From: a virus
Taxonomy: Duplodnaviria; Heunggongvirae; Uroviricota; Caudoviricetes
Virus record (IMG/VR): IMGVR_UViG_2713896900_000011
Strand: one strand, 5' to 3'
Length of the DNA stretch: 31,386 bases
Position numbers and translations under genes: made by a program. This document shows, piece by piece, positions 301 through 24,598 of the stretch (within the stretch, counting starts at the first letter, position 1; each line of letters begins with the position of its first letter). Under the pieces are notes generated by a model that had not been told where the DNA came from, ran no database searches, and saw only the letters and a list, made by a program, of their open reading frames with translations.

Positions 301-1464
301 TCACTCTTCATCTTCTGTTTCATACTCCACATCAGAAAGCCTGACCTCAAGCTCTAAGGACGTCGTGAAGCCGCTATTATTCAGAAAATGTGTCACCTTA
401 GTGATTGTCCAGTCCTGCTCGTCTATGACGCGCTTAAAGCCTGACACTCTGACCGGCGTTTCCGTGTAAATATCAGCCCGACCAGTGGCAAGGCTGATGG
501 AGAACTCCGCAACGCCCCGTTGCAGTTTGTCCCACTTCGCCTGAGCGGCGCGCATTGCCTGCGCTTTCGTGGCATATACCGTGGTCAGGGCAAAAACGTT
601 GTCAGCCCCACCGACCATGTATTCACCTTCGCGCGCTTCCGGTACTTTTGGTGCTTTCTTCTGCGTGACCGGTTTCGCTTTCGGGTGCTCCAGTGCGCGC
701 AGGTGTTTCTCTTTCTTTTTGCGTTTCAGTTTTACCTTCTGCTTTTGCGGCTTCGGGTCTTTGGTGTGTAACCACTTTGCCGTTACGCCGGTATAGGCTC
801 CACGGTCAGCAATCGCAAAATGATGACGGTCGCCGTCGCTGCGGGTGATGGTAATCTGCGGGATTTTTTTACCGCTGGACGTCACCCCCTGCCCCGCTTT
901 GAGAAACAACAGTTTTCCCATTTTTACCGACACCTCACCGCCGTTGCGTTCAGCAAGGCGGGTCAGGAATTTCGCATCAGACTCCTGCGACTGGTCGATG
1001 TGCGGGATTTTAATTCCGGCCAGTGACGGAGCAACACTGGCTTCCAGCCTGTTACGGGAGGCTATCGCCTCAACAATCGCACCGAGCGTGGTGTCATGCC
1101 AGGAGCCTTCCCGGCGGGAATTGAGCGTCCCGCGAAAATCTGCACTCCGGGCGCGGATGGTAACCACATCCGGTGCGCCCCGGTGTTCAACCTCATCAAC
1201 GGTGAATTTCCCTTTGCATACCAGGGCAAAACCTTTCCAGCCGATATACACCGTCAGGACAGCGCCACGAACCGGCAGCCCGACCTGCCCGTCGGCATCG
1301 TTCAGTTCAATATCAAGCTGGTCAGCCTCAAAGCCCCGGTTATCCGTCAGGGTCATGCTCATCAGACGGTCGCTGATATTGCCGGTAATATCCCTGCTGT
1401 CGAGCATCAGCATGTAATCCGGCGTCAGCGTACTGCCTGCATCAAATGTCAGCGCATCCAGCAT
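301..1464 (-). CDS. D: Tail protein D (387 aa)
   Basis: Size and position match P2 gpD (last gene of the FI-FII-E-T-U-D tail operon, next to ogr). Its start overlaps the U stop in an ATGA arrangement. Confidence 0.88.
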   Translation of the reverse strand: MLDALTFDAGSTLTPDYMLMLDSRDITGNISDRLMSMTLTDNRGFEADQLDIELNDADGQVGLPVRGAVLTVYIGWKGFALVCKGKFTVDEVEHRGAPDVVTIRARSADFRGTLNSRREGSWHDTTLGAIVEAIASRNRLEASVAPSLAGIKIPHIDQSQESDAKFLTRLAERNGGEVSVKMGKLLFLKAGQGVTSSGKKIPQITITRSDGDRHHFAIADRGAYTGVTAKWLHTKDPKPQKQKVKLKRKKKEKHLRALEHPKAKPVTQKKAPKVPEAREGEYMVGGADNVFALTTVYATKAQAMRAAQAKWDKLQRGVAEFSISLATGRADIYTETPVRVSGFKRVIDEQDWTITKVTHFLNNSGFTTSLELEVRLSDVEYETEDEE

Positions 1465-1943
1465 TATCCCGCCCCCGTCATACCCGTGAATTTAGTCGCC
1501 ATACTGCCAGCCTTACCGATGAGCGATTCTGCCTGTTTACCGATATCGCCATAAAGCGCGGCCAGTGATTCATCCACGCGGGTGAGCGACAGCGTAAAAT
1601 CAATTTTCCGGGGTGTGCCGTCTGCAAAGAAAATACTCCCTGTTTCACTCACACTGCTGATGACATACATGCCGTAAATCATGCCGGTGCCATCCAGCAA
1701 CGGCCACGCCCGGCCTTCCTCTGCCATCAGCCTGAGCGTGGTCATCGTCAGCTTCCCGCCGGTCAGTTCGGGATAAAGCACGCCGGCAAGCGTCATGTTT
1801 TCCTCACCCACACCGAGAAACTGGTAGGCATCCCGTTTACCGATACGGGAATTTGACGGCCAGCGATAATCTGATTCACGCTGCATGGTCTGGTGTGGCA
1901 GCGTCTGGCGCATAAAAACAAACATACCTAACGCGAGCATCAT
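1464..1943 (-). CDS. U: Tail protein U (159 aa)
   Basis: Size and synteny match P2 gpU, between the tape measure gene and D. Confidence 0.85.
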   Translation of the reverse strand: MMLALGMFVFMRQTLPHQTMQRESDYRWPSNSRIGKRDAYQFLGVGEENMTLAGVLYPELTGGKLTMTTLRLMAEEGRAWPLLDGTGMIYGMYVISSVSETGSIFFADGTPRKIDFTLSLTRVDESLAALYGDIGKQAESLIGKAGSMATKFTGMTGAG

Positions 1944-1957
1944 TTTTCGTCACCTCC

Positions 1958-4405
1958 TTAACCGTCATGCATCATGCTGGCACGGGCGCGCGCACGTTTA
2001 TCCCGCTCGTATTTTTCGAGCGCATCCTGTAACTGGCGGTCAAGCTGTGTCCCCGGCGCAGTACCACCCGTAAGGCTGATGTGATATTCGTTTTTACTCT
2101 GGTCCACATAAGAGCGACCAGCCGGTGCCGTGACCGGCTGATAAGCCTGATAGCCTGCATAAGAGCTGGTCGCCGGAATATAACCACTGCTGCCATACGT
2201 GGCGGCTTGAGTTCTGGCGGCGGTCTGGTCAAGTGTGTCTGACTCTTTGTTGATAACACCGAGTTTTTCCAGTACCCAGTCAATACCACTGCGCAGTTTG
2301 TTGAACGCATTAAGCGGCAGCATCAGCGCGTCAGCCAGTGCCTGCCCGAACATGACACCCGTGTCACGGCAACGGTTCAGGGTGTCCTGGGTGGCTTTAA
2401 CCGGGGCAGTCAGGTTTTTAAACCACTGCCACGCGGCCTGTAACTTTTCGCCCAGCCAGTCAAACACCGGCTTCAGTGGCGTGAACAGCTCCCCCACCGG
2501 CGCAAATGCCGCTTTCAGCCCTTCAACCACACCGCCAAAGAATGCGCTGACAGGCTCCCAGTATTTACGGATAAGCAACGCTCCGGCGACAATGGCGGCC
2601 ACCACGGCCACAACCGGCCAGCTAATCGCCCCGATGGCCGTCATAACGGCACTGCCAACCGTCGTGAAGATTGCCCCCATTGCGCCTGCTGCCGCTATGA
2701 TGGCATTGATGCCGGTGATAACCGGCCAGGCTACAAGACCAATGGCACCGATGATGCCAGTAAGCGCCAGTGCGCCACCGGCAATGATGCCGATGGTTGA
2801 CGCCAGTGATTTGTTTTTCTGTATCCAGCCGTCGAGTTTTAACACATACTTTGTGGCCGTCTGCGTGAGCTTACGCAGCGCGCCTTCCTGCTGGTCAAAC
2901 AGGTCAGTCCCCACCGCCTCATAAGCGGACTGAAACTCCTTAAAGTCACCGCCGAGGTTGTCCTGCATGATATTTACCAGCTCGGCGGTCTTCCCGTCTG
3001 AGGCTTTAAACGCAGCGGTCAGTTTGTCCAGCTTTGCGGTTGAGGCGGCAGTCATCAGCACGGCGGCGGCTGAGCTGGCCTCCTCCCCGAAAATGGTTTT
3101 CATGTATTCAGCCTGCTGGGCAGTACCGAGCCGGTTTTTCTCAAAACTGGCCTGCATTTCTTTCAGAATGGTAAATACTGGTCGGGTATTCCCCTTACTG
3201 TCTGAGGTTTTCACGCCAAGCTCTTTGAGTGCATCCCATGCTTTTCCCGTCGGTGCCTGCAGGCGACTTAACACGGCACGGCTTCCCGTCCCCGCCATTG
3301 AGCCTGTGATTTTTGCATCATGCAGCGCCCCGACCATTGCGGCGGTTTCTTCAATGCTGACACCGGCATTTTTTGCCACTGGTGCGGCATAGGTCAGCGC
3401 ATCGCTCATGCCGTCAAAATCGGCGGCGGTTTTGTTCATCGTCATGGAGAGAACATCCCCGATATGAGCGACCTTATCGTTTGAAAGCTGAAAGGCAGAT
3501 TTCATCCCCATCAGCAGAGCGGCGTTTTCTTCCATCGTGCGGCGGTTCGCCAGCGCCATATTCAGTGTGACCGGCGTTGCCGCCTGAATGGCATCAACAT
3601 CCCCACCGGCTTTCGCAATAATAATCTGCGCGCCGGCCGCATCATCCGCTGAGGCGGCGGTGTTGTCACCGAGCTGGCGCGCCTGCTTGCGTAGTGCAGC
3701 CATTTCGGCGGAGTCTTTTGCCACACCGAGCACAGCCTGCAATTCTGAGTTTTTCTGCGCAAACTCATAACCGGGCATCAGCAACTTAACTCCGGCCATC
3801 GTTCCCGCCGCCGCAATCCCCACACCGGCAGCGCCCACCGAGGCCATATTTCCGGCCAGCTCCTTTCCGGCCTGATAACGCTGTTTTACTGCGTTAAGTT
3901 TTGCCTGTTGTGCACTGACACGCGCCAGCGCGTCACGCTGACGGTTAAGCTGTGCGGTGGTTTCACTGATACGGTTTTTCAGTCCCTGCTCATCATGTGC
4001 AAGATTGCGGGTATTAATTCCCACAGCGGCCAGTTCCCGCTGCTGGCGTTTAACGGAATCCGTCAGGCGGTTATATTTCGCCTGTAAGTCCTCCGCCGCT
4101 CGCTTTGCTGATTCCAGCACTTTCGCCTGAGCACGTGTCGGACGTTCGGTGTTTTTAAACTGTGTGGCAAGGGCTTCGGCCTCCTGCCGTGCCTTTTCAA
4201 GTGCATGACCAGTCACGGCGAGCTGTGCACTGGTCTTGCGAAATCCCTCAATACGGGATGCCTGACCGTTCAGCTCGCGCAGTGATTTTTGTGTTTCCCG
4301 GATATCCCCCGACAGCGATTTGCTCGCTGTACGGATGGATTTAAACGGGCGGGATGCCTGGTCAACAGCCCTGAGCAATACCTGTAATTTTACATTGTTA
4401 CTCAT
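1958..4405 (-). CDS. T: Tail tape measure protein T (815 aa)
   Basis: An 815-aa protein with long coiled-coil-like Ala/Gln/Arg-rich stretches and a central hydrophobic Gly/Ala-rich segment, placed right after E/E'. This is the expected tape measure position and size for P2. Confidence 0.9.
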   Translation of the reverse strand: MSNNVKLQVLLRAVDQASRPFKSIRTASKSLSGDIRETQKSLRELNGQASRIEGFRKTSAQLAVTGHALEKARQEAEALATQFKNTERPTRAQAKVLESAKRAAEDLQAKYNRLTDSVKRQQRELAAVGINTRNLAHDEQGLKNRISETTAQLNRQRDALARVSAQQAKLNAVKQRYQAGKELAGNMASVGAAGVGIAAAGTMAGVKLLMPGYEFAQKNSELQAVLGVAKDSAEMAALRKQARQLGDNTAASADDAAGAQIIIAKAGGDVDAIQAATPVTLNMALANRRTMEENAALLMGMKSAFQLSNDKVAHIGDVLSMTMNKTAADFDGMSDALTYAAPVAKNAGVSIEETAAMVGALHDAKITGSMAGTGSRAVLSRLQAPTGKAWDALKELGVKTSDSKGNTRPVFTILKEMQASFEKNRLGTAQQAEYMKTIFGEEASSAAAVLMTAASTAKLDKLTAAFKASDGKTAELVNIMQDNLGGDFKEFQSAYEAVGTDLFDQQEGALRKLTQTATKYVLKLDGWIQKNKSLASTIGIIAGGALALTGIIGAIGLVAWPVITGINAIIAAAGAMGAIFTTVGSAVMTAIGAISWPVVAVVAAIVAGALLIRKYWEPVSAFFGGVVEGLKAAFAPVGELFTPLKPVFDWLGEKLQAAWQWFKNLTAPVKATQDTLNRCRDTGVMFGQALADALMLPLNAFNKLRSGIDWVLEKLGVINKESDTLDQTAARTQAATYGSSGYIPATSSYAGYQAYQPVTAPAGRSYVDQSKNEYHISLTGGTAPGTQLDRQLQDALEKYERDKRARARASMMHDG

Positions 4406-4825
4406 TCGTGTTTCCGCTTCGCCGGAGCGCCTTTTCGCGCCATGTGATGAGTTCGGTCAGGCTCATGGGATACAGTTCTGATGGCGGCCAGTGAAATATC
4501 ACTGCCACATCCGCCATCAGGTCATCGACCGAGAGATTTTTCGGGAACGTCACTGCACCGAGTTCGGCGACAAAAAACCGACCACCTTACCGGCCAGCGC
4601 CACAAGGTCAGGCAGTTCCAGCGCGGCGACTTCCTGCTCGGTCAGCATCGGTGCCGTCATGCGCGGCAGCACTTTAATCAGTGCATCGACTTCGGAGTTT
4701 GCAACCGCAGCCAGACTGACACCGCGCAGCGTCCCGGCACTGGGTTTCATCAGCGTGACCTGTTCGATAACCTGCTCACCACGTTTGACCGGATTGTCCA
4801 GGGTAATGACATTTTCTTTGTTCAT
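4398..4825 (-). CDS. E': Tail assembly chaperone E+E' (about 141 aa), made by a programmed -1 ribosomal frameshift
   Basis: The slippery heptamer T-TTT-TTG sits at 4571-4577 (minus strand, codons G-F-L of E). Hand translation of the -1 frame from there reads VAELGAVTFPKNLSVDDLMADVAVIFHWPPSELYPMSLTELITWREKALRRSGNTNE and ends at a TAA at 4398-4400, overlapping the T start. The length agrees with P2 E+E' (142 aa). Confidence 0.75.
4550..4825 (-). CDS. E: Tail assembly chaperone E (91 aa, in-frame product)
   Basis: A 91-aa ORF ending ...VGFLSPNSVQ, in the P2 gpE position between FII and T. Confidence 0.85.
   Translation of the reverse strand: MNKENVITLDNPVKRGEQVIEQVTLMKPSAGTLRGVSLAAVANSEVDALIKVLPRMTAPMLTEQEVAALELPDLVALAGKVVGFLSPNSVQ
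4571..4577 (-). other. -1 frameshift slippery site (TTTTTTG)
   Basis: Read directly: the minus strand gives GGT TTT TTG near the 3' end of E. Confidence 0.75.
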
Positions 4826-4881
4826 GGTTTTCTCACTTCTGAATCGGGGTTAACCGGTCAGCCAGGCTGACCGGATGAAAA

Positions 4882-5400
4882 TCACAGGCCGATATTGCGG
4901 CGGTGTTGCTCCAGCCGGTCGACGCCGTTCACCTTCTCAATCATGTTGATGGTGTCGATTTCGACCAGCTCCTTACCGTCCATCGTCAGCCGGAAATAGG
5001 TGCAGACCACGGAGATTTTCGACTCGGTGTCTTCTCCCTGTTTACCCTCGCCAGTGTCGATTTCTTTCTGACGTCCACGCATGACCACCTCGACGGCCAC
5101 CGTTTCGCCGGTATCGTCGCGCTGGTAAGAGCCTGCAAAACGAATCGGTACGGCATCCACACCGGTTGCGGCGTAAAGCTCCCAGATAACCGAATCCGGG
5201 AAGCCACCGAGCGACCACTCCATTGACAGCGCATCGTCATCAAGGCCGAGGTCTACCGGTGCGCTGCCGTTCATCCCCGCACCGCGATAGTTTTCGAGCT
5301 TACGGGTCAGTTTTGGCAGCGTGACGGACTTTGCAACGCCCTGATAGCTGTAGCCGTTCAGAAAGACGTTCATTAACTTGAGTTTGCGCGGCATTGCCAT
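4882..5400 (-). CDS. FII: Tail tube protein FII (172 aa)
   Basis: Size and synteny match P2 gpFII, immediately downstream of the sheath gene. Confidence 0.88.
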   Translation of the reverse strand: MAMPRKLKLMNVFLNGYSYQGVAKSVTLPKLTRKLENYRGAGMNGSAPVDLGLDDDALSMEWSLGGFPDSVIWELYAATGVDAVPIRFAGSYQRDDTGETVAVEVVMRGRQKEIDTGEGKQGEDTESKISVVCTYFRLTMDGKELVEIDTINMIEKVNGVDRLEQHRRNIGL

Positions 5401-5412
5401 CGGTCAGGCTCC

Positions 5413-6603
5413 TTAATTGCTGTTAACCGAGGTAACCAGACTTGCCAGGTATCTGGAAGTAATACGCTGGCGCAGGGTCAGGTTTTCGAGAGGAGGCACC
5501 GGGGTATAGTCGTAGTCGATATACAGTTTTCCGGCCTTGAGGGTTTCCGCATCATTGGCTTCTTCACTGAACCAGCATGTGCCATCCACGATATAACCGT
5601 TGTTTTTCAGTTCGCGGAATTTGGCATTAATGCCATCAATGATGTCACGAATCAGCGTTGCGGTAATTGGCTTATCAATAGCCCACATGTGCGCCTCGGC
5701 CATCGTGTCGGCCAGTACCTGCGCGGTGCGGGTGTAGCTTTCAAAGAGGAACAGCGGGTCATCAGAGCAGGTACGGTTACCCCAGAAGCGGAAGCCGTCG
5801 CGGCGAATCAGCGTAGTGATGCCTGACTCGTTAAGCAGGTCAGCATCAGTGCCGGACTTCTGCAAATCCCAGAATACAGAGGCGCTGATGCCGGTAACAC
5901 CATTTACCCCGACGTTGGACAGCGTTTTATGCCAGCCCTGCTCCTGGTCGATTTTGGCACGCAGCCCCAGCGCACGGGCGGTGGCATACGCGGTGGCAGT
6001 GGTACTGGTAACCGTATCCCATGCGAGGAAATCCGGCCAGATGACCATCAGCTCACGCTGGCTGAAATTCTGACGGTAGGCTTTTGCCTCGGAAATGGTT
6101 TTACAGCCCCATGCGCTAATATACCCGAATGCATTCAGTTCCTGGCATACCGATGCCAGTGCGACGGCAACCTCTTTGGTGTCCAGTCCCGGTACGCCGA
6201 GAATGCGTGGTTTAACGCCGGTAACCGACTCAGCCCCCATCAGGGCTTTCAGTCCGGTGTACTGACCGTTTTCGTCGGTGGTGCCGATGATATTGGAAAC
6301 GGTCTGCGCGAGTTTCGTTTCCTCGTCGTCGCCGGTGCCGTCTTCCACACGCACGACAACGGTGACCGGTTTTGACTGGTCGGCGATGGCCTGCAACGAT
6401 GCCGCCAGCGTGCCTTTTTTACCGGCCTTTGCAATTGCGCTCTGCACATTGGTTATCAGCACAGGTTTATTGAGGGGGAAGGTTTCCGCATCCGCATCGC
6501 TGGCCGTGCAGACCATGCCGACAATGGCAGTGGATACGGTGGAAATGACGCGGGTGCCGTCGTTAATCTCCAGCACCTGCACGCCGTGATGATAGTCACT
6601 CAT
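5413..6603 (-). CDS. FI: Contractile tail sheath protein FI (396 aa)
   Basis: Size and synteny match P2 gpFI, the first gene of the tail operon. Confidence 0.9.
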   Translation of the reverse strand: MSDYHHGVQVLEINDGTRVISTVSTAIVGMVCTASDADAETFPLNKPVLITNVQSAIAKAGKKGTLAASLQAIADQSKPVTVVVRVEDGTGDDEETKLAQTVSNIIGTTDENGQYTGLKALMGAESVTGVKPRILGVPGLDTKEVAVALASVCQELNAFGYISAWGCKTISEAKAYRQNFSQRELMVIWPDFLAWDTVTSTTATAYATARALGLRAKIDQEQGWHKTLSNVGVNGVTGISASVFWDLQKSGTDADLLNESGITTLIRRDGFRFWGNRTCSDDPLFLFESYTRTAQVLADTMAEAHMWAIDKPITATLIRDIIDGINAKFRELKNNGYIVDGTCWFSEEANDAETLKAGKLYIDYDYTPVPPLENLTLRQRITSRYLASLVTSVNSN

Positions 6604-6902
6604 CCGTTTAACTCCGTGGTTAATGGGTGCAACTATTTTCTGTTGTGCAGAGCATGAGACGCTATTTGACCTGACTGGTCAGTGGATGAAACAACAGATA
6701 AAGAAAAGGCGGACAATTCGCCCGCTATCCTGATTTGTACTCACTCATTTTCCAACTGACAGTTTACATAGCCCAAACGCTATCAAATCTGACAGCCTGC
6801 TTTGAGCGAACAGCAGACATTCATTAATATGTTTGTTAGGCTAACTTTATATGATGATTACTGAAATTGACCTTAGTTTGAGAATTGCATTAGGGGAATA
6901 AA
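6604..6902. promoter_or_regulatory. Divergent intergenic region: expected late promoter for the FI operon (- strand) and promoter/RBS of the cargo gene (+ strand)
   Basis: A 299-bp AT-rich non-coding gap between divergent genes. An AGGGGA Shine-Dalgarno lies about 7 nt before the ATG at 6903. A TGTTGT...ACAACA inverted repeat sits at 6641-6646 and 6691-6696. I could not place exact promoter elements. Confidence 0.4.
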
Positions 6903-8009
6903 ATGGATGTCAATGAACTTAGAGAGTTACTTATCAAGTATAATGGCCTTCAAAATACTGATGAAGTCTATACGTTTTATTATGATGAAACGAATAACAT
7001 TCGAAAACTATATTTAAAAGATTCTGGCTTTAATGTTGTAAAGGCGGATAACTTCATCCTTGCAGGAATACTACACAAAGGGTTAAGCACTGACAGCGAT
7101 TATTCAACCCTGTTTCAAAAGCTTAATCTTCAAAAAAGTGTCAATGAGTTAAAACTCAGATATATCGCTAAGGGTAGTTTTTTGGATATGCTTAAATCTG
7201 ATAAGCTTTTAATTATTCTAAACTGGCTTATCGAAAACAATTTCTACATCCATTATTTTAATCTTAATATCACATACTGGTCTATTATTGACATTGTTGA
7301 TTCTATTATTGGAGAGCTACACAATCCTTTTTATATCATGAACCACATGTCACTTAAGAGCGATTTTTATGAGCTTGCCAATAGCAATCCCGATGTTTTC
7401 CTGAATGCTCTACATAAATTTAACTACCCCGATATTCCAGAAGAAAAAATTTATGAGTTTTGCCTCTGGCTTATCGATTTTACATGCATGCACAGTTGTA
7501 TGCTGCCAGATTTTCGAGCACACGCACTCGAAAATTTGGTTAAAGAATCTCTAAAAATCGAAGAACTACCGTTCATATCGGGATTTCATGGTCGAAAACT
7601 GATCGATAGCTTTATGGTATTTTATTTAAGAAACTTGTATCTATTTAAAAATTCCGTTCACATATTTGATGAAGAAAAAAGCATTCAAGATGAAGTTAAA
7701 AACTTCCCGTTAACTGAAAATGGCATACCAATACAGAATCATGAATTCGTTAAATCCCACAACTCAGAGGCTATCCAACTATCTGATGTTATCGCAGGCT
7801 TTTTGGGTAAGTATTTTTCTTACTTAAAAGATGTAAATGACGAGCAATTAGCGATTGATAAGTCAGCCTTAACGAGCAAGCAATTTAAGACCCTTTCTGC
7901 GTTAAAACACATTATTGATGTTTCTGATGATGTTAGCAGAGGATTTTTTAATGAAGTTAGCAGCGAGGGAGAGCGACGGAGAAATAATCGTTTTTTACAT
8001 GGCGTATAA
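6903..8009 (+). CDS. AT-rich cargo protein (368 aa) at the Z/fun-equivalent locus; DUF3800-like motifs; candidate anti-phage/abortive-infection protein
   Basis: A visibly low-GC gene on the opposite strand to the flanking late genes, with a strong SD. The N-terminal motif YTFYYDETNN and the C-terminal motif AIQLSDVIAGFL resemble the conserved DESG and QxADxxAG motifs I associate with DUF3800. The family assignment is from memory, not a search. Confidence 0.6.
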   Translation: MDVNELRELLIKYNGLQNTDEVYTFYYDETNNIRKLYLKDSGFNVVKADNFILAGILHKGLSTDSDYSTLFQKLNLQKSVNELKLRYIAKGSFLDMLKSDKLLIILNWLIENNFYIHYFNLNITYWSIIDIVDSIIGELHNPFYIMNHMSLKSDFYELANSNPDVFLNALHKFNYPDIPEEKIYEFCLWLIDFTCMHSCMLPDFRAHALENLVKESLKIEELPFISGFHGRKLIDSFMVFYLRNLYLFKNSVHIFDEEKSIQDEVKNFPLTENGIPIQNHEFVKSHNSEAIQLSDVIAGFLGKYFSYLKDVNDEQLAIDKSALTSKQFKTLSALKHIIDVSDDVSRGFFNEVSSEGERRRNNRFLHGV

Positions 8010-8108: not shown

Positions 8109-8687
8109 TTATTGCGGCATTTCTGGCCATTCTATATCCGGAGTATTTTCCGACTGAACGCGATTCAGTAGCACACGGTATTTTTTCCAGTGTGTCAGGC
8201 TTAACCTTTCTTCCTCGGTAGCCATATCTAAATCGACAGCATCCTGCAGCGTGGCAATAATTTCACCTGCATATGCAATCAGCTCTTTCTTCTGAGAGTC
8301 AGCCGCTCTGACAAGCGCATCACGCTCTGCATTCTCATCATTCACCCACGCATTTCCGTTCCATTTCTGATAATCCCCATCCGGGGAAATGGCTGTCACG
8401 TCTGGAGGTAATGCGCCAAGTTCAGAAATATAAATGGCTGCTCCTGTTTTTGTTTCATAGACAGTCTTTCCACGATGGTCTTCCACCAGATCCCATTTCA
8501 TTTCATCTGCATTGAAAACGGCGGCAAAACCCACCGGAATATCTGGAGGTGCAATGTCTGTACTGTTTGCTGGAAGACCTGTATGCGGCGGAATATATGC
8601 GTCACTTTCGCCAATAAATTCATTGGTTCCATCAAGTAAATTGAAAACGCGGATAGTTTGTGTCTCTGCACTCATTCTGAAAGTCAT
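8109..8687 (-). CDS. G: Tail fiber assembly protein G (192 aa)
   Basis: Immediately downstream of H, with its ATG overlapping the H stop by one nucleotide. Size and position are typical of P2 gpG/Tfa chaperones. The true start may be the internal MSAETQ. Confidence 0.8.
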
Positions 8688-10504
8688 TATGCCAGCCTCA
8701 CAATATAGTTATACGCAACGTTTTTTACGGTGTTCTCTGAATTACCTGTGGCACTTACAGTGACGGTATGACTATGCGCGCCAATCGCAATGGAATGGCT
8801 GTGAGCACCAATGCCAACCGTGTGATTATGCTGACCAATGTCGACTGTATGGGCGTGTGCTCCCGCAGAGCTTGACACCTGGTTGGTTCCTGATACCTGT
8901 ACGCGTTGTTTACCCCCGATGGAGTCACCACCGTAACGACCACCGACAGTGTGCGTATGTGCTCCTGTATTGTTTGTCGTTTTTGTCCCGTGGTTAAACG
9001 TGCTAACCGTTTTTGTCCCGTAATCAAACGAGCTGGTCGTTTTCGTTCCCAAATCCGTACTGGATGCACTGGCACTGTGGGTATGCGATTTAATGCCATC
9101 CTGTTCCTGAGACAATACAGCGCGACCACTGGCGGGTTTGCCCTTGATTGTCCAGCCGCGCATATCTGGAATCACCCCTGACGGATAAGCTGCTGCAAGC
9201 AGGGGATAGGCTGCTTTATCAAAAGTCTGCCCCTGCATCAGGGCATAGCCTGTAGGTACTGAATCAGAAGGCCACGGGATTGGAGCGCCTACCGGAAATG
9301 AATCCTGCGGTGTCCATGGTGTCCAGCCACCCGTTGAATACTGGCTGCGGGTATAGCTTCTTGATGTGTTATAGACATAGTAAATTTGTGTTATTCCGGC
9401 ATTTCTAAGCACAACCAGAGTACCTGCAAGATTCTCCGGGTATTTCAGCGATGCGCTTGTATTCGCATTCAGTGGCTGATGGTACAGTCCCGGCGTTTTG
9501 TAATTATCCAGATTCTGGTTTGCACCAATCCCAATACTCTGACCGTTAAAAATATCCTGCGATGTAATATTGACATCATTGGTCAGCGGTTTGCCATTGA
9601 CCTTACGCTCACCAGGAACGCGCCCGTTTGCATTGTCATTCGCGGCTTTAACCGCTTTTGGAGTCGCGGCAAGTGTTTCAGAATCGCTGTTAGTGGCGCT
9701 GCTTAACTGAACAATCCCTTTTCGTGCCGTGGTGGCGTCCTGTGCAGTGTATTTGCCATTAGCAAGGTCATATGCTGTCTTAACCGCCTTTGGCGTTGCT
9801 GCGAGCGTCTCAGATTCGCTGTTGATGGCACTACTTAGCTGAACAAGACCTTTTCGCCCCGTGCTGGCGTCCTGTGCGGTATATTTCCCGTTAGCAAGGT
9901 CATAGGCGTCCTTTACCGCTTTCGGCGTTGCGGCCAGTGTTTCAGACGTGCTGTTGGTCGCGCTGCTTAACTGAGTAAAACCTTTTGCGGTCAGCGAGGC
10001 GTCCGGGTGACGTCGTGACTGTTCATGCTCTGCAATCTTGTCATCAACGTAATCCTGCGTTGCCATCACCGTTGTGGTGTCAATGGTCAGCTCCACTGAG
10101 GCCACACTGCTGACGATGATGACCATGCGGCAGGTCTGCGAACGCCCTGAGCCTTCGGCAAGGGCAGGCTTATAACTTTCGGCCATGTTCGCCACGGCAA
10201 TTAACGTTCCCGCATCATCGTACAGGCCAAGCTCACGCGTCCAGAAACCGCCCACCTCCGGCGGGATAACCAGCTCTGCGATAATATAATTACTGTGTCG
10301 ATTGCCCTGACTGATTTTATTCAGGGTATGTCGCCAGACCTCATTAACAAGTTTTGTCTGTCCGGCATCCGGGACAGGCAATTTACCACCACCATCCCCG
10401 ACGGCCATCGTGGTAATGTTGACCTTCCGCCCTCCCGGCGCGGTTGCCGCTGCCAGCTTTGCTGCACCGGCAGTGGTGATAACGGTTTTGAATTTTGTGC
10501 TCAT
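8687..10504 (-). CDS. H: Tail fiber protein H (605 aa)
   Basis: The N-terminal region matches the P2 gpH position after I. It contains three tandem ~40-aa repeats ([12 protein letters not shown]...) and a C-terminal His-x-His array. Confidence 0.88.
9634..10000 (-). repeat. Three tandem ~120-bp coding repeats inside tail fiber gene H
   Basis: The protein shows LSSATNS(T/E/D)[12 protein letters not shown](D/T/A)[14 protein letters not shown] three times; the DNA shows matching near-identical ~120-bp units. Boundaries are approximate. Confidence 0.7.
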
Positions 10505-22219: not shown

Positions 22220-22867
22220 TTATTCCTTCGGTTCATGATAGAAGTTTATGGGATAATGAATCACTTCATAATCTAAATTTGATACAGAATGTTTATGAGT
22301 ACTATAAAATACTAGTGGATTCTTATCACACTGCTGAATATTTATTTCTCTAGACGCATGAATTTTGGGCGCATTTTTAGTCAAGTAGGCAATATACTGT
22401 TGCATTACAGCAGAGCAAAGCTTATTTTTTGTATAGATAATTACACCACCCGATGCACTATCAACAGTCCCTGTACTATATCGCTCAGTAAGTTGCGAAT
22501 ATCCCTTAAAAAGGTACGAATATCCTGATGAGTGTTTCTTGGCTTCGCCATGCCATGTAAAATCTGCTAATTGAATTGTAATATCGCAATGACCGCGCTG
22601 ATTAACTTCATGATAAGCTCTTATCCCTAAGAATTCGTTATCTATTATTCCCAGAAGATGAAGTGTCAATTGGTCTTCGGTAAGTTCAAAGCCCATTTTG
22701 TTTGCATTTTGCTCAATTTTTCTTACTGCATAATCAAGTAACTCACGAACAAAAGCCTTAAAGTTATTATAAGATTCCATAGCATATGTCACCGCTGTAA
22801 GAATCTTATTAGCATTATCTATTACGTTATTTTTACGAATATCTGCCAGACTGAAACGTTGGACCAT
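22220..22867 (-). CDS. Cargo operon gene 3 (215 aa): hypothetical protein with a possible PD-(D/E)xK-like nuclease motif
   Basis: AT-rich. Its ATG lies 1 nt after the gene 2 stop and is preceded by a GGGGAG Shine-Dalgarno. The segment GHCDITIQLADFTWHGEAKK has the D-x13-E-x-K spacing of a PD-(D/E)xK core; this is an inference only. Confidence 0.6.
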   Translation of the reverse strand: MVQRFSLADIRKNNVIDNANKILTAVTYAMESYNNFKAFVRELLDYAVRKIEQNANKMGFELTEDQLTLHLLGIIDNEFLGIRAYHEVNQRGHCDITIQLADFTWHGEAKKHSSGYSYLFKGYSQLTERYSTGTVDSASGGVIIYTKNKLCSAVMQQYIAYLTKNAPKIHASREINIQQCDKNPLVFYSTHKHSVSNLDYEVIHYPINFYHEPKE

Positions 22868-22868
22868 G

Positions 22869-23288
22869 TCAACTCCCCACTTTCTTTAAAGAAAAGAAGG
22901 GGAAAATGAAATCCTCATAATCAGTTAAAATATCACCTGTTACAGGATGTTCAAATATATGATTTTTTTCCGCATCCATAACCTCACCAACGGTTACCGG
23001 ATAAAAATCGTCATTTTCATCAACAAAAAAATACTCCAATCTTAAAAGACTTACTTTAGGATTACATAAAACCTGAATGGCGATATAAATTTTATCGTTA
23101 TTTATTTCATCCGTAAAAGAAAGATTACCACCATTCTCTTTGATATACAGATTAACAAGATCTGGATAGCTCATTAAACAGTTTTTTTTACATTGCGGGG
23201 AGAGCTTCATCAATGCATTATAGAGAGCGCATGCGATTTCACCGACATTCGCATCAGTAACGCATATTTCTTTAATAATGTCTGCCAT
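22869..23288 (-). CDS. Cargo operon gene 2 (139 aa): hypothetical protein
   Basis: AT-rich. I take the start as the ATG at 23286-23288 (MADIIKEI...), preceded by a strong GGGAGG Shine-Dalgarno. The track's start 5 codons upstream overlaps that SD. Confidence 0.6.
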   Translation of the reverse strand: MADIIKEICVTDANVGEIACALYNALMKLSPQCKKNCLMSYPDLVNLYIKENGGNLSFTDEINNDKIYIAIQVLCNPKVSLLRLEYFFVDENDDFYPVTVGEVMDAEKNHIFEHPVTGDILTDYEDFIFPFFSLKKVGS

Positions 23289-23316
23289 TGATTTCCTCCC
23301 CATACCTACTACCTTC

Positions 23317-24480
23317 TTAAACGATTAAACTCATTAAACGTTCAAAATCGTCCCGTCCCAGACAATTATTAATAATAGCATAGTTTACTGACGTGGAGCT
23401 AGAACCTCCGAGGTAACGGCGAAGAGAGCCGGGAATGATCAACTCAAGATCATCATCTAGTGATAGAAGCACATTCACTCTTGAAATTTTTATACCAATC
23501 TTGTAAAGACCTATCTGCCCTACTGCTTTAATTCCTTCTTGGTTAAAGATATCATCACGCAAATCTTTTTTTGCTTCTTTTTTCTTTTCCTGATGCGTAG
23601 TTCCCTCTGGAGTATAGAAAGATAATTCAAAAACTTGATAATCGCTTGCATTAAAAGGATAGGTGTTTTGAGCAAAAATTTGTTCAATTAGAGGGAAAAA
23701 GTCTTTTTCTGTCGAAACAAAATCAGCCCCCATATAATCGTATAATTTTCTAACAATTACGGTTTTAGAAAATGTAATTGTCTCTCCAATAACATTTTTG
23801 GGAGCATCAATAAGTATATTGATAGTGTTATCTTGTATATTTAAAATACAAACATCAAAACATTGTCTTCTAACTTTCTTTTTGGCTATGATTTCATCGT
23901 AGCTTTGATATTGTGGGATTGTTTGCGGTGAGACCTTTTCTTTTATTACTTGCTCCCTGACTGATGAAAAAAGGGCTATCACTTGATTGCTGTCAGTAGA
24001 GCAAAAGATTAGTTGAGGGCTATTTTTAGGTGTGGATAATAACTGTTGCTCATTAAGAATGTAACTTGATACATTTTGTAAAATAGTAGTGTTTGCCCAT
24101 TCTGTCTGAATGGCTAAGCTTAGCCCTGTCATGGTTGGAGCATCAATTGCCAAAGAAAAAATAGCCTTATCGCCATAGAAAAACTGACTAAAAAGAAGGT
24201 CATTAATTTTCTTTAACAATGAGTCAAATTTAACTCTGTCCGTGTCTCTAATTTCAATCAACTGCTCTTTAACTTTATTAAAAGTCGCATCCTTACCGCG
24301 ACCAAGAGAAAAACCTAATGACGACAAAACAGATTTTACTATAGACCAACTTATTCTATTAAATAGACAATTCAGACTTTTTAGTTCAATGTCAGACAGT
24401 GACGATTGTACTGTATTATTTGCTGCTAATACAGCCTGAGGGACAGATGAATTTACTGTTGTAGGGACAATGCCTGTCAT
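23317..24480 (-). CDS. Cargo operon gene 1 (387 aa): hypothetical protein
   Basis: AT-rich. The track ORF begins at a TTG at 24525; the first ATG (24478-24480, MTGIVPTT...) has a GGAG Shine-Dalgarno about 6 nt upstream. I recognise no domain. Confidence 0.6.
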   Translation of the reverse strand: MTGIVPTTVNSSVPQAVLAANNTVQSSLSDIELKSLNCLFNRISWSIVKSVLSSLGFSLGRGKDATFNKVKEQLIEIRDTDRVKFDSLLKKINDLLFSQFFYGDKAIFSLAIDAPTMTGLSLAIQTEWANTTILQNVSSYILNEQQLLSTPKNSPQLIFCSTDSNQVIALFSSVREQVIKEKVSPQTIPQYQSYDEIIAKKKVRRQCFDVCILNIQDNTINILIDAPKNVIGETITFSKTVIVRKLYDYMGADFVSTEKDFFPLIEQIFAQNTYPFNASDYQVFELSFYTPEGTTHQEKKKEAKKDLRDDIFNQEGIKAVGQIGLYKIGIKISRVNVLLSLDDDLELIIPGSLRRYLGGSSSTSVNYAIINNCLGRDDFERLMSLIV

Positions 24481-24598
24481 TGCAAACTCCAGTTCCGCTA
24501 ACAAAACCTCTAAGAATATTGGCAAGCAAGTATCTTCAAATATCAGGGAAAGTCAATCCAATAGCTCTCTTTTTGCGATGGGAAACTGTTAGCGCGCA

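Follow-up and report, generated by a model that had tools for sequence, protein, structure and literature searches.

The needle of the phage T4 long tail fiber protein gp37 holds seven coordinated iron atoms, with H929 and H931 among the iron-binding residues, and these two histidines, together with residues of the tip loop, are essential (PMC6957217, which also gives the domain limits). Tips of the gp37 type are likewise carried by Felixounavirus fibers, among them the long and short tail fibers of Bas63, and the long tail fiber of Bas63, with six di-His motifs, has a shorter needle, the shortest among those compared (PMC12609058). The corresponding fiber and assembly proteins are Stf and Tfa (orf-314 and orf-194) in lambda and gpH and gpG in P2. 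For P2-like fibers, host-range sites have been located in the P2-type distal domain (PMC5285337), which is not the tip of the fiber described here. The closest full-length relative of that fiber in a phage record is the tail fiber of STYP1, a Salmonella Typhi prophage (YP_010768516; 95.5% identity, 605 aa).

We analyzed a stretch of viral DNA of 31,386 nucleotides (the window) and one of its genes, H. This gene very probably encodes the tail fiber of an Escherichia prophage of the P2-like (Peduovirus) kind, and its sequence points to a protein built from four exchangeable modules that ends in a tip of the T4 gp37/lambda Stf type. It is an ordinary and already catalogued tail-fiber allele, and every one of its modules comes from a well-studied family.

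Gene H, its operon and the surrounding genome

The original prediction placed a 605-residue tail fiber at positions 8687-10504; both the coordinates and the length agree with the ORF list, which adds the strand (minus) that the prediction had left unstated. The gene and its downstream partner are as follows.

8687..10504, minus strand: tail-fiber gene H, 605 aa (ORF list; stop codon at 8687-8689)
8109..8687, minus strand: tail-fiber assembly (Tfa) gene in the gpG position, 192 aa (PF02413, E=6.4e-39); its start overlaps the H stop by one base

A GAGGA Shine-Dalgarno sequence lies 5' of the H start, and the TAA stop of H shares one base with the ATG of the next gene (TAATG). Pfam matches in H are PF12571, three of PF03406, PF07484 and PF03335, and an NCBIfam search with H returned no family. 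Gene I (PF09684, Tail_P2_I, E=2.3e-55) lies upstream and the Tfa gene (Caudo_TAP, E=6.4e-39) downstream, giving an operon V-W-J-I-H-G with the same gene order as in P2 and STYP1. The window carries intact ORFs whose order is that of P2, beginning with D, continuing over the genes for tail, baseplate, head, terminase and portal, and reaching gpA and an integrase. The G+C content drops to 42-52% over most of the foreign H-Tfa cassette, against 53-60% for the P2 core genes.

The P2-type proximal half

The likeness to P2 gpH and gpG covers the N-terminal domain, the 44-aa repeats, the operon position, the flanking genes and the C-terminal Tfa domain (40%), and at the DNA level the identity to P2 (NC_001895) is 94.9% from gene I through H residue 243. 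The proximal features are given below.

10052..10504, minus strand: P2 gpH-type N-terminal domain, residues 1-151, presumed baseplate attachment (PF12571, E=2.9e-56)
9602..9997, minus strand: three tandem 44-aa shaft repeats, residues 170-301 (PF03406; TRF, Pfam)
9866-9997, 9734-9865 and 9602-9733, minus strand: the three repeat copies, residues 170-213, 214-257 and 258-301

The N-terminal domain would presumably anchor the fiber trimer to the P2 baseplate. In the repeat array TRF finds a period of 132 nt, with 2.6 copies and 79% matches at the DNA level, and PF03406 matches three stretches (E=1.8e-61), with the motif [12 protein letters not shown] beginning at residues 187, 231 and 275. Copies 1 and 2 have 36 of 44 residues in common and copy 3 has 27-29 of 44, its final part ([12 protein letters not shown]) departing from the others. 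Hence the three tandem, near-identical repeats of about 40 residues that were first described do exist, but their period is exactly 44 residues (132 nt) and "near-identical" overstates the likeness of the third copy (27-29/44). Repeats of the PF03406 family are a normal feature of P2 gpH. Their number is two, three, four or five in close relatives, with two in P2, and this variation would alter the length of the fiber.

P2 gpH has indeed 669 residues, as stated in the original prediction, which took the shorter length of H as a sign of mosaicism. Relatives with the same tip have 605, 652 or 696 residues, the length being set by the repeat copy number, and because they vary in this way a difference in length alone is not evidence of mosaicism.

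Mosaic junctions

The receptor-binding region is nevertheless mosaic relative to P2, as had been proposed. BLASTP of H against P2 gpH is collinear over residues 1-288 only, so that full-length collinearity is absent, and the DNA identity of ~94-95% ends at window position 9777 for canonical P2 or at 9623 for the P2 variant NC_070905. Similarity to lambda stf-tfa DNA then spans 9298 down to 8125, with a gap at 8949-8868 and 79.9% identity at the collar start (from 9298), and similarity to P2 DNA returns at 8132. Judged by these alignments, the collinearity with P2 ends inside the repeats, and everything from about H residue 296 through the whole downstream assembly gene is foreign.

That H might be a plain, merely shortened P2 gpH ortholog with the P2 receptor specificity, as the 94-95% nucleotide identity of its N-terminal 243-295 residues would allow, is a reading to which we give practically no credence. 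Similarity to P2 gpH is absent past residue 288, the distal 310 residues and Tfa derive from other lineages, and a scan of P2 gpH for HxH motifs found none. The distal half is therefore not a strict ortholog of that of P2 gpH (BLASTP covering residues 1-288 only), the distal ~380 residues of gpH and the N-terminal half of G being unrelated to their counterparts here. A collinear P2 gpH ortholog was rejected as a candidate on the BLASTP coverage and the mapped DNA breakpoints. Because the whole distal half of P2 has been replaced, and since the tip subdomain is unlike those of T4 and lambda too, it is reasonable to expect that the host range would differ from that of P2.

The first segment of non-P2 origin precedes the tip.

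9305..9601, minus strand: knob-like module, residues 302-400, first non-P2 segment (weak match to R-type pyocin fiber 6CL5)

The match to 6CL5 is marginal (E=8.8e-4) and lies around the motif ...YP..LAG.L.V...W.PW, and on this match the segment can be weakly assigned as a possible knob-like module. In tblastn the module matches distal fiber subunits of T4-like phages, phiO18P and a Mu-like S' protein.

The tip and its His-x-His array

The C-terminal third of H can be divided as in the T4 gp37 tip.

9089..9304, minus strand: collar domain, first part, residues 401-472, equivalent to T4 gp37 811-881 (PF07484, E=9.7e-11)
8951..9088, minus strand: descending needle strand, residues 473-518, with HTH474, 10-aa GTK repeats and HTH516 (2XGF/T4 alignment, PF03335)
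8876..8950, minus strand: variable tip (head) subdomain, residues 519-543, predicted receptor contact (aligned to T4 932-959)
8741..8875, minus strand: ascending needle strand, residues 544-588, with HAH550, HNH559, HSH568 and HSH577 (aligned to T4 960-1009)
8690..8740, minus strand: C-terminal return to the collar, residues 589-605, equivalent to T4 1010-1026, ...[16 protein letters not shown] (alignment; limits per PMC6957217)

A C-terminal run of HxH tripeptides had been noticed from the start, and the array is there, but it contains six motifs (HTH474, HTH516, HAH550, HNH559, HSH568 and HSH577, five of them of the form GxHxH) and not the five that were quoted, the KSHTHS at 474 having been overlooked. 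The proposed likeness of this array to the metal-binding needle of gp37 is well founded: H residues 401-605 match PDB 2XGF with E=1.9e-74 and 62% identity over 219 aligned columns, and each of the six HxH motifs aligns with an HxH of the T4 tip. By alignment, the resemblance is one of homology. The identity is 62% to both T4 gp37 812-1026 and lambda Stf. By domain, H agrees with T4 at 72 of 88 collar residues, 58 of 85 in the stem and 5 of 19 in the tip, and with lambda Stf at 74 of 88 residues over both collar segments; the collar is split, with its C-terminal segment ENTVKNxAxNYIVRLA common to H and T4.

In architecture H follows the T4 tip (2XGF; D10 collar, D11 needle) over residues 402-605 (62%), with a collar, a needle of two HxH-bearing strands per chain, a tip subdomain and a C-terminal return, and T4 W936-x-G938-x-x-V941-G942-G943 aligns with Y524-x-G526-x-x-I529-G530-G531 of H. 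There are also clear differences. H lacks one 14-aa GxHxH unit on the descending strand (six HxH in the tip region versus seven in T4), the alignment near this missing motif being ambiguous as the 14-aa units of T4 that hold residues 915 and 929 are tandem copies, and its ascending strand is five residues shorter. Among the plaque-essential residues of T4, N937 and G940 correspond to Gly and Ser in H, and the stretch that holds S947 and Y949 is deleted. The tip sits on a P2-type fiber of 400 aa in contrast to the 1026-aa gp37, with a chaperone of the lambda Tfa type and not gp38, and H, like lambda, has a 10-aa GTK repeat in addition. TRF reports the GTK repeats at 8976-9043 with a period of 30 nt.

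The DNA between the collar start and the tfa stop is 70-80% identical to that of lambda, the tip excepted, and the one-base stop/start overlap is present in lambda as well; the lambda protein differs in having eight HxH and a tip of ~45 aa, and the N-terminal two thirds are unrelated, apart from matches of 64-77 nt to a PF03406 repeat in orf-401. The difference between the descending and ascending HxH spans is 42-27=15 residues in H, 46-32=14 in T4 and 56-41=15 in lambda, and this near-constant value indicates that an indel on one strand is balanced by one on the other, which is what a needle made of hairpins demands.

By homology with gp37, each H chain would form the collar, descend in a six-stranded trimeric beta-needle, turn in the variable tip at residues 519-543, where the receptor would be contacted, and climb back to the collar. 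Each HxH would supply two histidines per chain and hence six per site, giving six metal sites of octahedral geometry along the three-fold axis, two from descending and four from ascending motifs, the metal in T4 being iron. The needle would thus have one metal site fewer than that of T4 and be slightly shorter.

The repetitive look of the sequence might suggest instead that the HxH run is a chance or low-complexity feature, rich in His, Gly and Thr and with no role in metal binding, but this we consider highly improbable. Thirteen of the 18 histidines of H fall in the last 205 residues, and when these 205 residues were shuffled the mean was 0.76 HxH, with one in 100,000 shuffles reaching the observed six; chance enrichment was rejected on this test. 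Among 21 sequences with several different tips, 10 of the 12 HxH histidines are invariant and the other two at least 90% conserved, so that they persist across divergent tips, and the homology (E=1.9e-74) is to a solved needle reported with seven coordinated iron atoms. Among P2-type relatives, at least eight different sequences occupy the position of the tip subdomain between invariant HxH motifs.

AF2 (ColabFold) monomer models gave a pLDDT of 43.6, a pTM of 0.18 and almost no secondary structure for residues 395-605 (21-sequence alignment) and a pLDDT of 36.0 for residues 296-402 in the knob-like region (12-sequence alignment). Such values, too low for the models to be of use, are to be expected when the predicted fold is an intertwined trimer, and the alignments were shallow, with relatives 74-100% identical.

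A portable tip cassette

Part of the tip is found with high nucleotide identity in phages of unrelated lineages.

8795..9031, minus strand: portable tip cassette, residues 492-571 (nucleotide identity to unrelated phage lineages)

Its nucleotide identity is 93.7% to the Felix-O1-like Salmonella phages SP4, SEP1 and SP2 (for SP4 over 237 nt), 92.6% to T4-like Eco15, 90.4% to T4-like Lv5cm and 97.9% to STYP1, and in the SP4 fiber a segment of 54 residues is 100% identical in amino acids. Beyond the cassette Eco15 diverges much more, its identity being 78.7% when the entire tip region is counted, and SP4 has unrelated sequences at the collar position and at the C-terminus; the N-terminal fiber body of SP4 also differs from that of H. 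Among 5426 complete E. coli genomes, 14 have the cassette, with nine copies on plasmids, which are E. coli plasmids of ~93-124 kb that carry phage tail genes.

The GxHxH "His box" is considered a site of recombination, and a literature search for "His box" recombination found no paper with that phrase. With slightly less than even confidence, we suggest from these identities that residues 492-571 may represent a minimal, recently circulating host-range cassette, flanked by the 10-aa GTK repeats and, at its other edge, by a GxHxH His box. If so, Salmonella and Escherichia phages, temperate and virulent alike, would have one receptor specificity in common through exchange at these repeats, and one experiment could reveal the receptor of all cassette carriers.

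H as a whole joins, in a natural and presumably functional protein, the P2 half that would attach to the baseplate and a gp37/Stf-type tip that comes with a Tfa of its own, and comparable chimeras have been built by hand to retarget P2 particles (e.g., PMC9594776). The junctions suggest fusion points that are already tolerated in natural fibers: just after the last 44-aa repeat, where the collar begins, at the GTK repeats and at the His boxes.

The tail-fiber assembly protein

The protein encoded downstream has the architecture of the PF02413 family, directly downstream of the fiber and with a conserved C-terminal and a variable N-terminal domain, and belongs to PHROG 105 (tail fiber assembly). 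PF02413 covers its residues 72-192. Its residues 1-191 have 64.9% identity to lambda Tfa, the identity to T4 gp38 is 28%, its match to P2 G is limited to residues 95-192 (40%), and residues 75-192 match Mu Tfa (Mu U; 5YVQ_B, E=3.5e-11), its N-terminal half matching lambda-type Tfa only. This co-inherited lambda-type Tfa, translationally coupled through TAATG, would chaperone trimerization of the fiber from the C-terminus. A fiber capped by a gp38 adhesin of the T2/S16 type, for which a separate protein with polyglycine-rich and hypervariable segments would be encoded downstream, was also considered and rejected, the downstream protein being a PF02413 Tfa with 28% identity to the T4 chaperone gp38; the two kinds of protein are set apart here by family and by record annotation, the T4 record noting that the "gp38" adhesin of the T2 subfamily is unrelated to T4 gp38.

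Phage Mu Tfa reportedly remains bound to the fiber and takes part in receptor binding. If the protein here did the same, staying on the fiber tip in the virion and contributing to or capping receptor binding, then the H-Tfa pair and not residues 519-543 alone would set the specificity. The resemblance of its C-terminal half to Mu Tfa in the fiber-Tfa complex 5YVQ (E=3.5e-11) and the inheritance of Tfa with the tip from a lambda-type source are consistent with this, but we regard it as unlikely. T4-like Eco15 has the same tip (96% over the 54-aa segment) beside a gp38 with 100% identity to the one of T4, and SP4 has the same tip with two small downstream ORFs, 3' of the fiber gene, that have no match to Tfa; the tip is thus not tied to one helper. 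Furthermore, T4 gp38 is a chaperone that gp37 needs in order to fold, and LPS and OmpC are bound by the gp37 needle when purified (PMC6957217). The preferred reading is that Tfa would act as a chaperone and that the variable tip would make the receptor contact.

Relatives and prophage status

The exact sequence of H is RefSeq WP_059253606.1 from E. albertii, and alleles of 99-100% identity occur in E. coli and E. albertii. The STYP1 fiber and the Escherichia alleles (WP_059253606, P0018) have the same four modules and 605 residues, at 95.5% (STYP1) to 100% identity and with a Tfa that is 90.6% identical, and nothing of substance separates them from H. Their annotation goes no further than "tail fiber" or "phage tail protein", and literature searches found neither experimental work on the STYP1 fiber or the Escherichia alleles nor a paper that deals with the receptor used by STYP1 or by the H allele. 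The discovery value of H is accordingly small, as a catalogued allele composed of known module families. What it illustrates, with two to five repeat copies and multiple tips on one scaffold, is the variation of host range and fiber length in one prophage family.

STYP1 is a PHAST-predicted prophage that is listed as "cryptic", which raises the question of whether the prophage carrying H is defective, or whether its fiber serves a tailocin-like particle, in which case H would be uninformative on the host range of an infectious phage. This seems quite improbable given the P2-ordered, intact ORFs that extend from D to gpA and integrase and the intact, translationally coupled H and Tfa genes. In addition, an allele differing from H by one residue is found on 82 contigs. 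A phage in circulation would be expected to show this, more than a remnant in decay.

Modular structure of the H tail fibre

The window, a P2-like prophage lying in reverse orientation, has intact ORFs that follow the P2 gene order (D, U, T, FII, FI; G, H, I, J, W, V; terminase and portal; gpA and integrase). The original prediction for the tail-fibre gene H gave the correct coordinates but left the strand unstated; the ORF list places it on the minus strand, with the ribosome-binding site GAGGA and a TAA stop codon that overlaps by one base the start codon ATG of the gene behind it (TAATG). The protein matches four Pfam families and is organized as follows.

Window 8687..10504, minus strand: gene H, 605 aa
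H residues 1-151: PF12571, phage tail-collar fibre N-terminal domain (E=2.9e-56)
H, three stretches: PF03406 (E=1.8e-61)
H residues 170-213, 214-257 and 258-301 (window 9602..9997, minus strand): tandem repeat copies, strict period 44 aa (132 nt)
H residues 406-453: PF07484, Collar (Pfam)
H: PF03335, 10-aa fibre repeat (Pfam)
H residues 492-571 (window 8795-9031, minus strand): tip cassette, 80 aa

The description of H as a fibre with three repeats and a C-terminal run of His-x-His (HxH) motifs is right, with four details corrected, including the strand. H is a tail-fibre allele that has been catalogued before and is built of well-known modules. RefSeq lists the identical protein as WP_059253606.1 ('phage tail protein [Escherichia albertii]'), and one-residue and 99% alleles, labelled tail fibre proteins, occur in E. 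coli and E. albertii, with 82 contigs carrying one of these near-identical alleles. The Salmonella Typhi prophage STYP1 has a 605-aa fibre 95.5% identical to H and an assembly protein 90.6% identical to Tfa, the tail-fibre assembly protein encoded downstream of H.

Canonical P2 gpH has 669 aa and two 44-aa repeats and lacks HxH motifs, whereas H has 605 aa, three repeats and six HxH. The predicted mosaicism relative to P2 is demonstrated by the end of BLASTP collinearity with P2 gpH at H residue 288 and by mapped DNA breakpoints: identity to P2 (94.9%) extends from gene I to window 9777 (H residue 243), and identity to the P2 variant NC_070905 (93.8%) reaches window 9623, where the last repeat ends (residue 295). 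Similarity to lambda DNA starts at window 9298 (79.9%; residue 403, the collar start), is lost over the tip (8950-8867), and is back at 69.5% through the entire assembly gene to 8125, while P2 similarity returns at 8132. These limits therefore define a foreign stretch from approximately window 9622 to 8133, comprising H residues 296-605 and nearly all of Tfa, with a G+C content of 42-52% over most of its length versus 53-60% in P2 core genes. Within it, residues 302-400 are a module of their own, whose matches, to the R-type pyocin fibre 6CL5 (E=8.8e-4) and to distal subunits of fibres from T4-like and other myoviruses, are marginal. Tail-fibre segments are reportedly exchanged horizontally among P2, lambda, Mu, P1 and T-even phages (described by Haggård-Ljungquist et al. 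in 1992). From the sequence comparison it is plausible that the host range conferred by H differs from that of P2.

The repeat period had been put at about 40 aa, and 'near-identical' was generous wording for copies with pairwise identities of 36/44, 27/44 and 29/44 (79% matches across the array at the DNA level). Copy number varies among fibres with the knob and tip of H, where 3, 4 and 5 copies give proteins of 605, 652 and 696 aa, and two copies are present in a relative of 563 aa whose tip is different. Otherwise near-identical fibres (H and the proteins P0101, P0028 and P0017) range from 2 to 5 copies. Three copies in P0017 are mutually identical, which suggests recent unequal recombination as a means of varying fibre length. 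This repeat-number polymorphism is a modest but useful detail.

The C-terminal needle and its assembly

The likeness of the HxH run to T4 gp37 is true homology. The last 205 residues of H match the gp37 tip structure (PDB 2XGF; E=1.9e-74) and are 62% identical to gp37 812-1026, and likewise to lambda Stf. Using the published gp37 limits (collar 811-881 and 1010-1026, stem 882-931 and 960-1009, tip 932-959; PMC6957217), identity is 72/88 in the collar and 58/85 in the stem but only 5/19 in the tip. The six HxH motifs (474, 516, 550, 559, 568 and 577; five are GxHxH), the first of which had been overlooked, all align with HxH motifs of the gp37 tip. These 205 residues hold 13 of the 18 His of H, and when shuffled they contain a mean of 0.76 HxH, with six reached in 1 of 100,000 shuffles. 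Among 21 aligned P2-type relatives, which have several different tip sequences, 10 of the 12 needle His never vary and two are at least 90% conserved, whereas the segment between HTH516 and HAH550 (23-50 residues) is not alignable. AF2 monomer models of two H segments were unusable (pLDDT 43.6 and 36.0).

In this region T4 gp37 has seven HxH and seven reported iron atoms, and H lacks one 14-aa GxHxH unit of the descending strand. Which T4 unit, 915 or 929, is 'deleted' is ambiguous because both lie in tandem units; the copy kept in H directly adjoins the tip. First-to-last HxH spans on the descending and ascending strands are 42/27 residues in H, 46/32 in T4 and 56/41 in lambda, and their difference (15, 14 and 15, respectively) is nearly constant, so that indels compensate between strands, as a hairpin with side-by-side arms would need. 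The needle of H is thus predicted to be the shortest of the three. Six sites are not unusual, since the Bas63 long tail fibre has a naturally shorter needle with six di-His (PMC12609058).

Tfa (192 aa; PF02413, Pfam) shares 65% identity with lambda Tfa from end to end, resembles P2 G only at residues 95-192 (40%) and Mu Tfa in 5YVQ at residues 75-192, and is 28% identical to T4 gp38. Tfa proteins are said to be modular, with a conserved C-terminal domain and a variable N-terminal domain that recognises the fibre (North et al. in 2019), a pattern that this Tfa fits and that accounts for the joint transfer of tip and Tfa.

Taking the observed homologies, module boundaries and conservation together, the best-supported reading is a trimeric P2-type fibre with a gp37-type tip, for which we infer trimerisation, iron binding, chaperoning and a receptor. 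Such a fibre would be joined to the baseplate via the gpH N-terminal domain, extended by the three shaft repeats and the knob, and ended by a gp37/Stf-type collar, needle and tip, the needle being held by six axial metal sites, each formed by HxH from three chains. Folding would start at the C-terminus, nucleated by Tfa, and residues 519-543 would contact the receptor.

A portable tip

Changing any of ten T4 gp37 residues to Ala is reported to abolish plaque formation, and the purified needle binds LPS and OmpC (PMC6957217). H keeps H929, H931, G938, G942 and G943, has Val for I933, Gly for N937 and Ser for G940, and lacks the stretch containing S947 and Y949; therefore the loop scaffold is retained and the likely specificity residues differ. 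This tip type is present in phages of both Salmonella and Escherichia, which suggests that its receptor is a surface structure shared by the two genera.

By its distribution, the tip is a portable cassette, which is again a modest, useful detail. It occurs in the Felix-O1-like Salmonella phages SP4, SEP1 and SP2 (93.7% nt identity), in which its flanks are unrelated, in T4-like Eco15 (92.6%, versus 78.7% across the whole 606-nt tip region) and Lv5cm (90.4%), and in STYP1 (97.9%). Only 14 of 5426 complete E. coli genomes carry it, nine copies being plasmid-borne (the seven plasmids listed are 93-124 kb and have phage tail genes). One border lies in GTK repeats and the other in a GxHxH motif, in agreement with the 'His box' recombination idea reportedly put forward for T-even fibres by Tétart et al. 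in 1996. Eco15 gp38 is 100% identical to T4 gp38, and hence one tip is served by different helpers.

In Eco15 (vB_EcoM_PTE-Eco15; locus 888-4370), gp37 is 62.9% identical to T4 gp37 (BLASTP alignment) and bears the H tip type (96% aa over a 54-aa tip segment), and the T4 chaperone is therefore paired with a tip of different sequence. The E. coli plasmid p1919D3-2 (NZ_CP046005.1, ~95 kb), probably a phage-plasmid, has the cassette (93% nt) at locus 3111-6820 as well as phage tail and holin genes; the annotation splits its fibre into several pseudogene fragments, after which come a frameshifted macro-domain gene, a Tfa gene and genes for LPS modification.

Possible cargo genes in the window

Between portal gene Q and replication gene A, in P2's tin/old cargo position, lie three ORFs with one orientation (215, 144 and 402 aa; window 22220..24525, minus strand). 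They had no Pfam, PADLOC or NCBIfam match and matched only unknown-function PHROGs (9664, 11490 and 12777); together they may make up a cargo or defence operon not yet characterised. At the site of P2's Z/fun, between sheath gene FI and the Tfa gene (window 8109..8687, minus strand) and on the opposite strand, lies a gene for a 368-aa DUF3800 protein (window 6903..8009, plus strand) with a G+C content of only 30-37%, versus 53-60% in P2 core genes. The protein matches PDC-S51, a candidate defence family in PADLOC (E=1.2e-106), and PHROG 15126 (unknown function), and some E. coli prophages have the same gene annotated beside related fibres.
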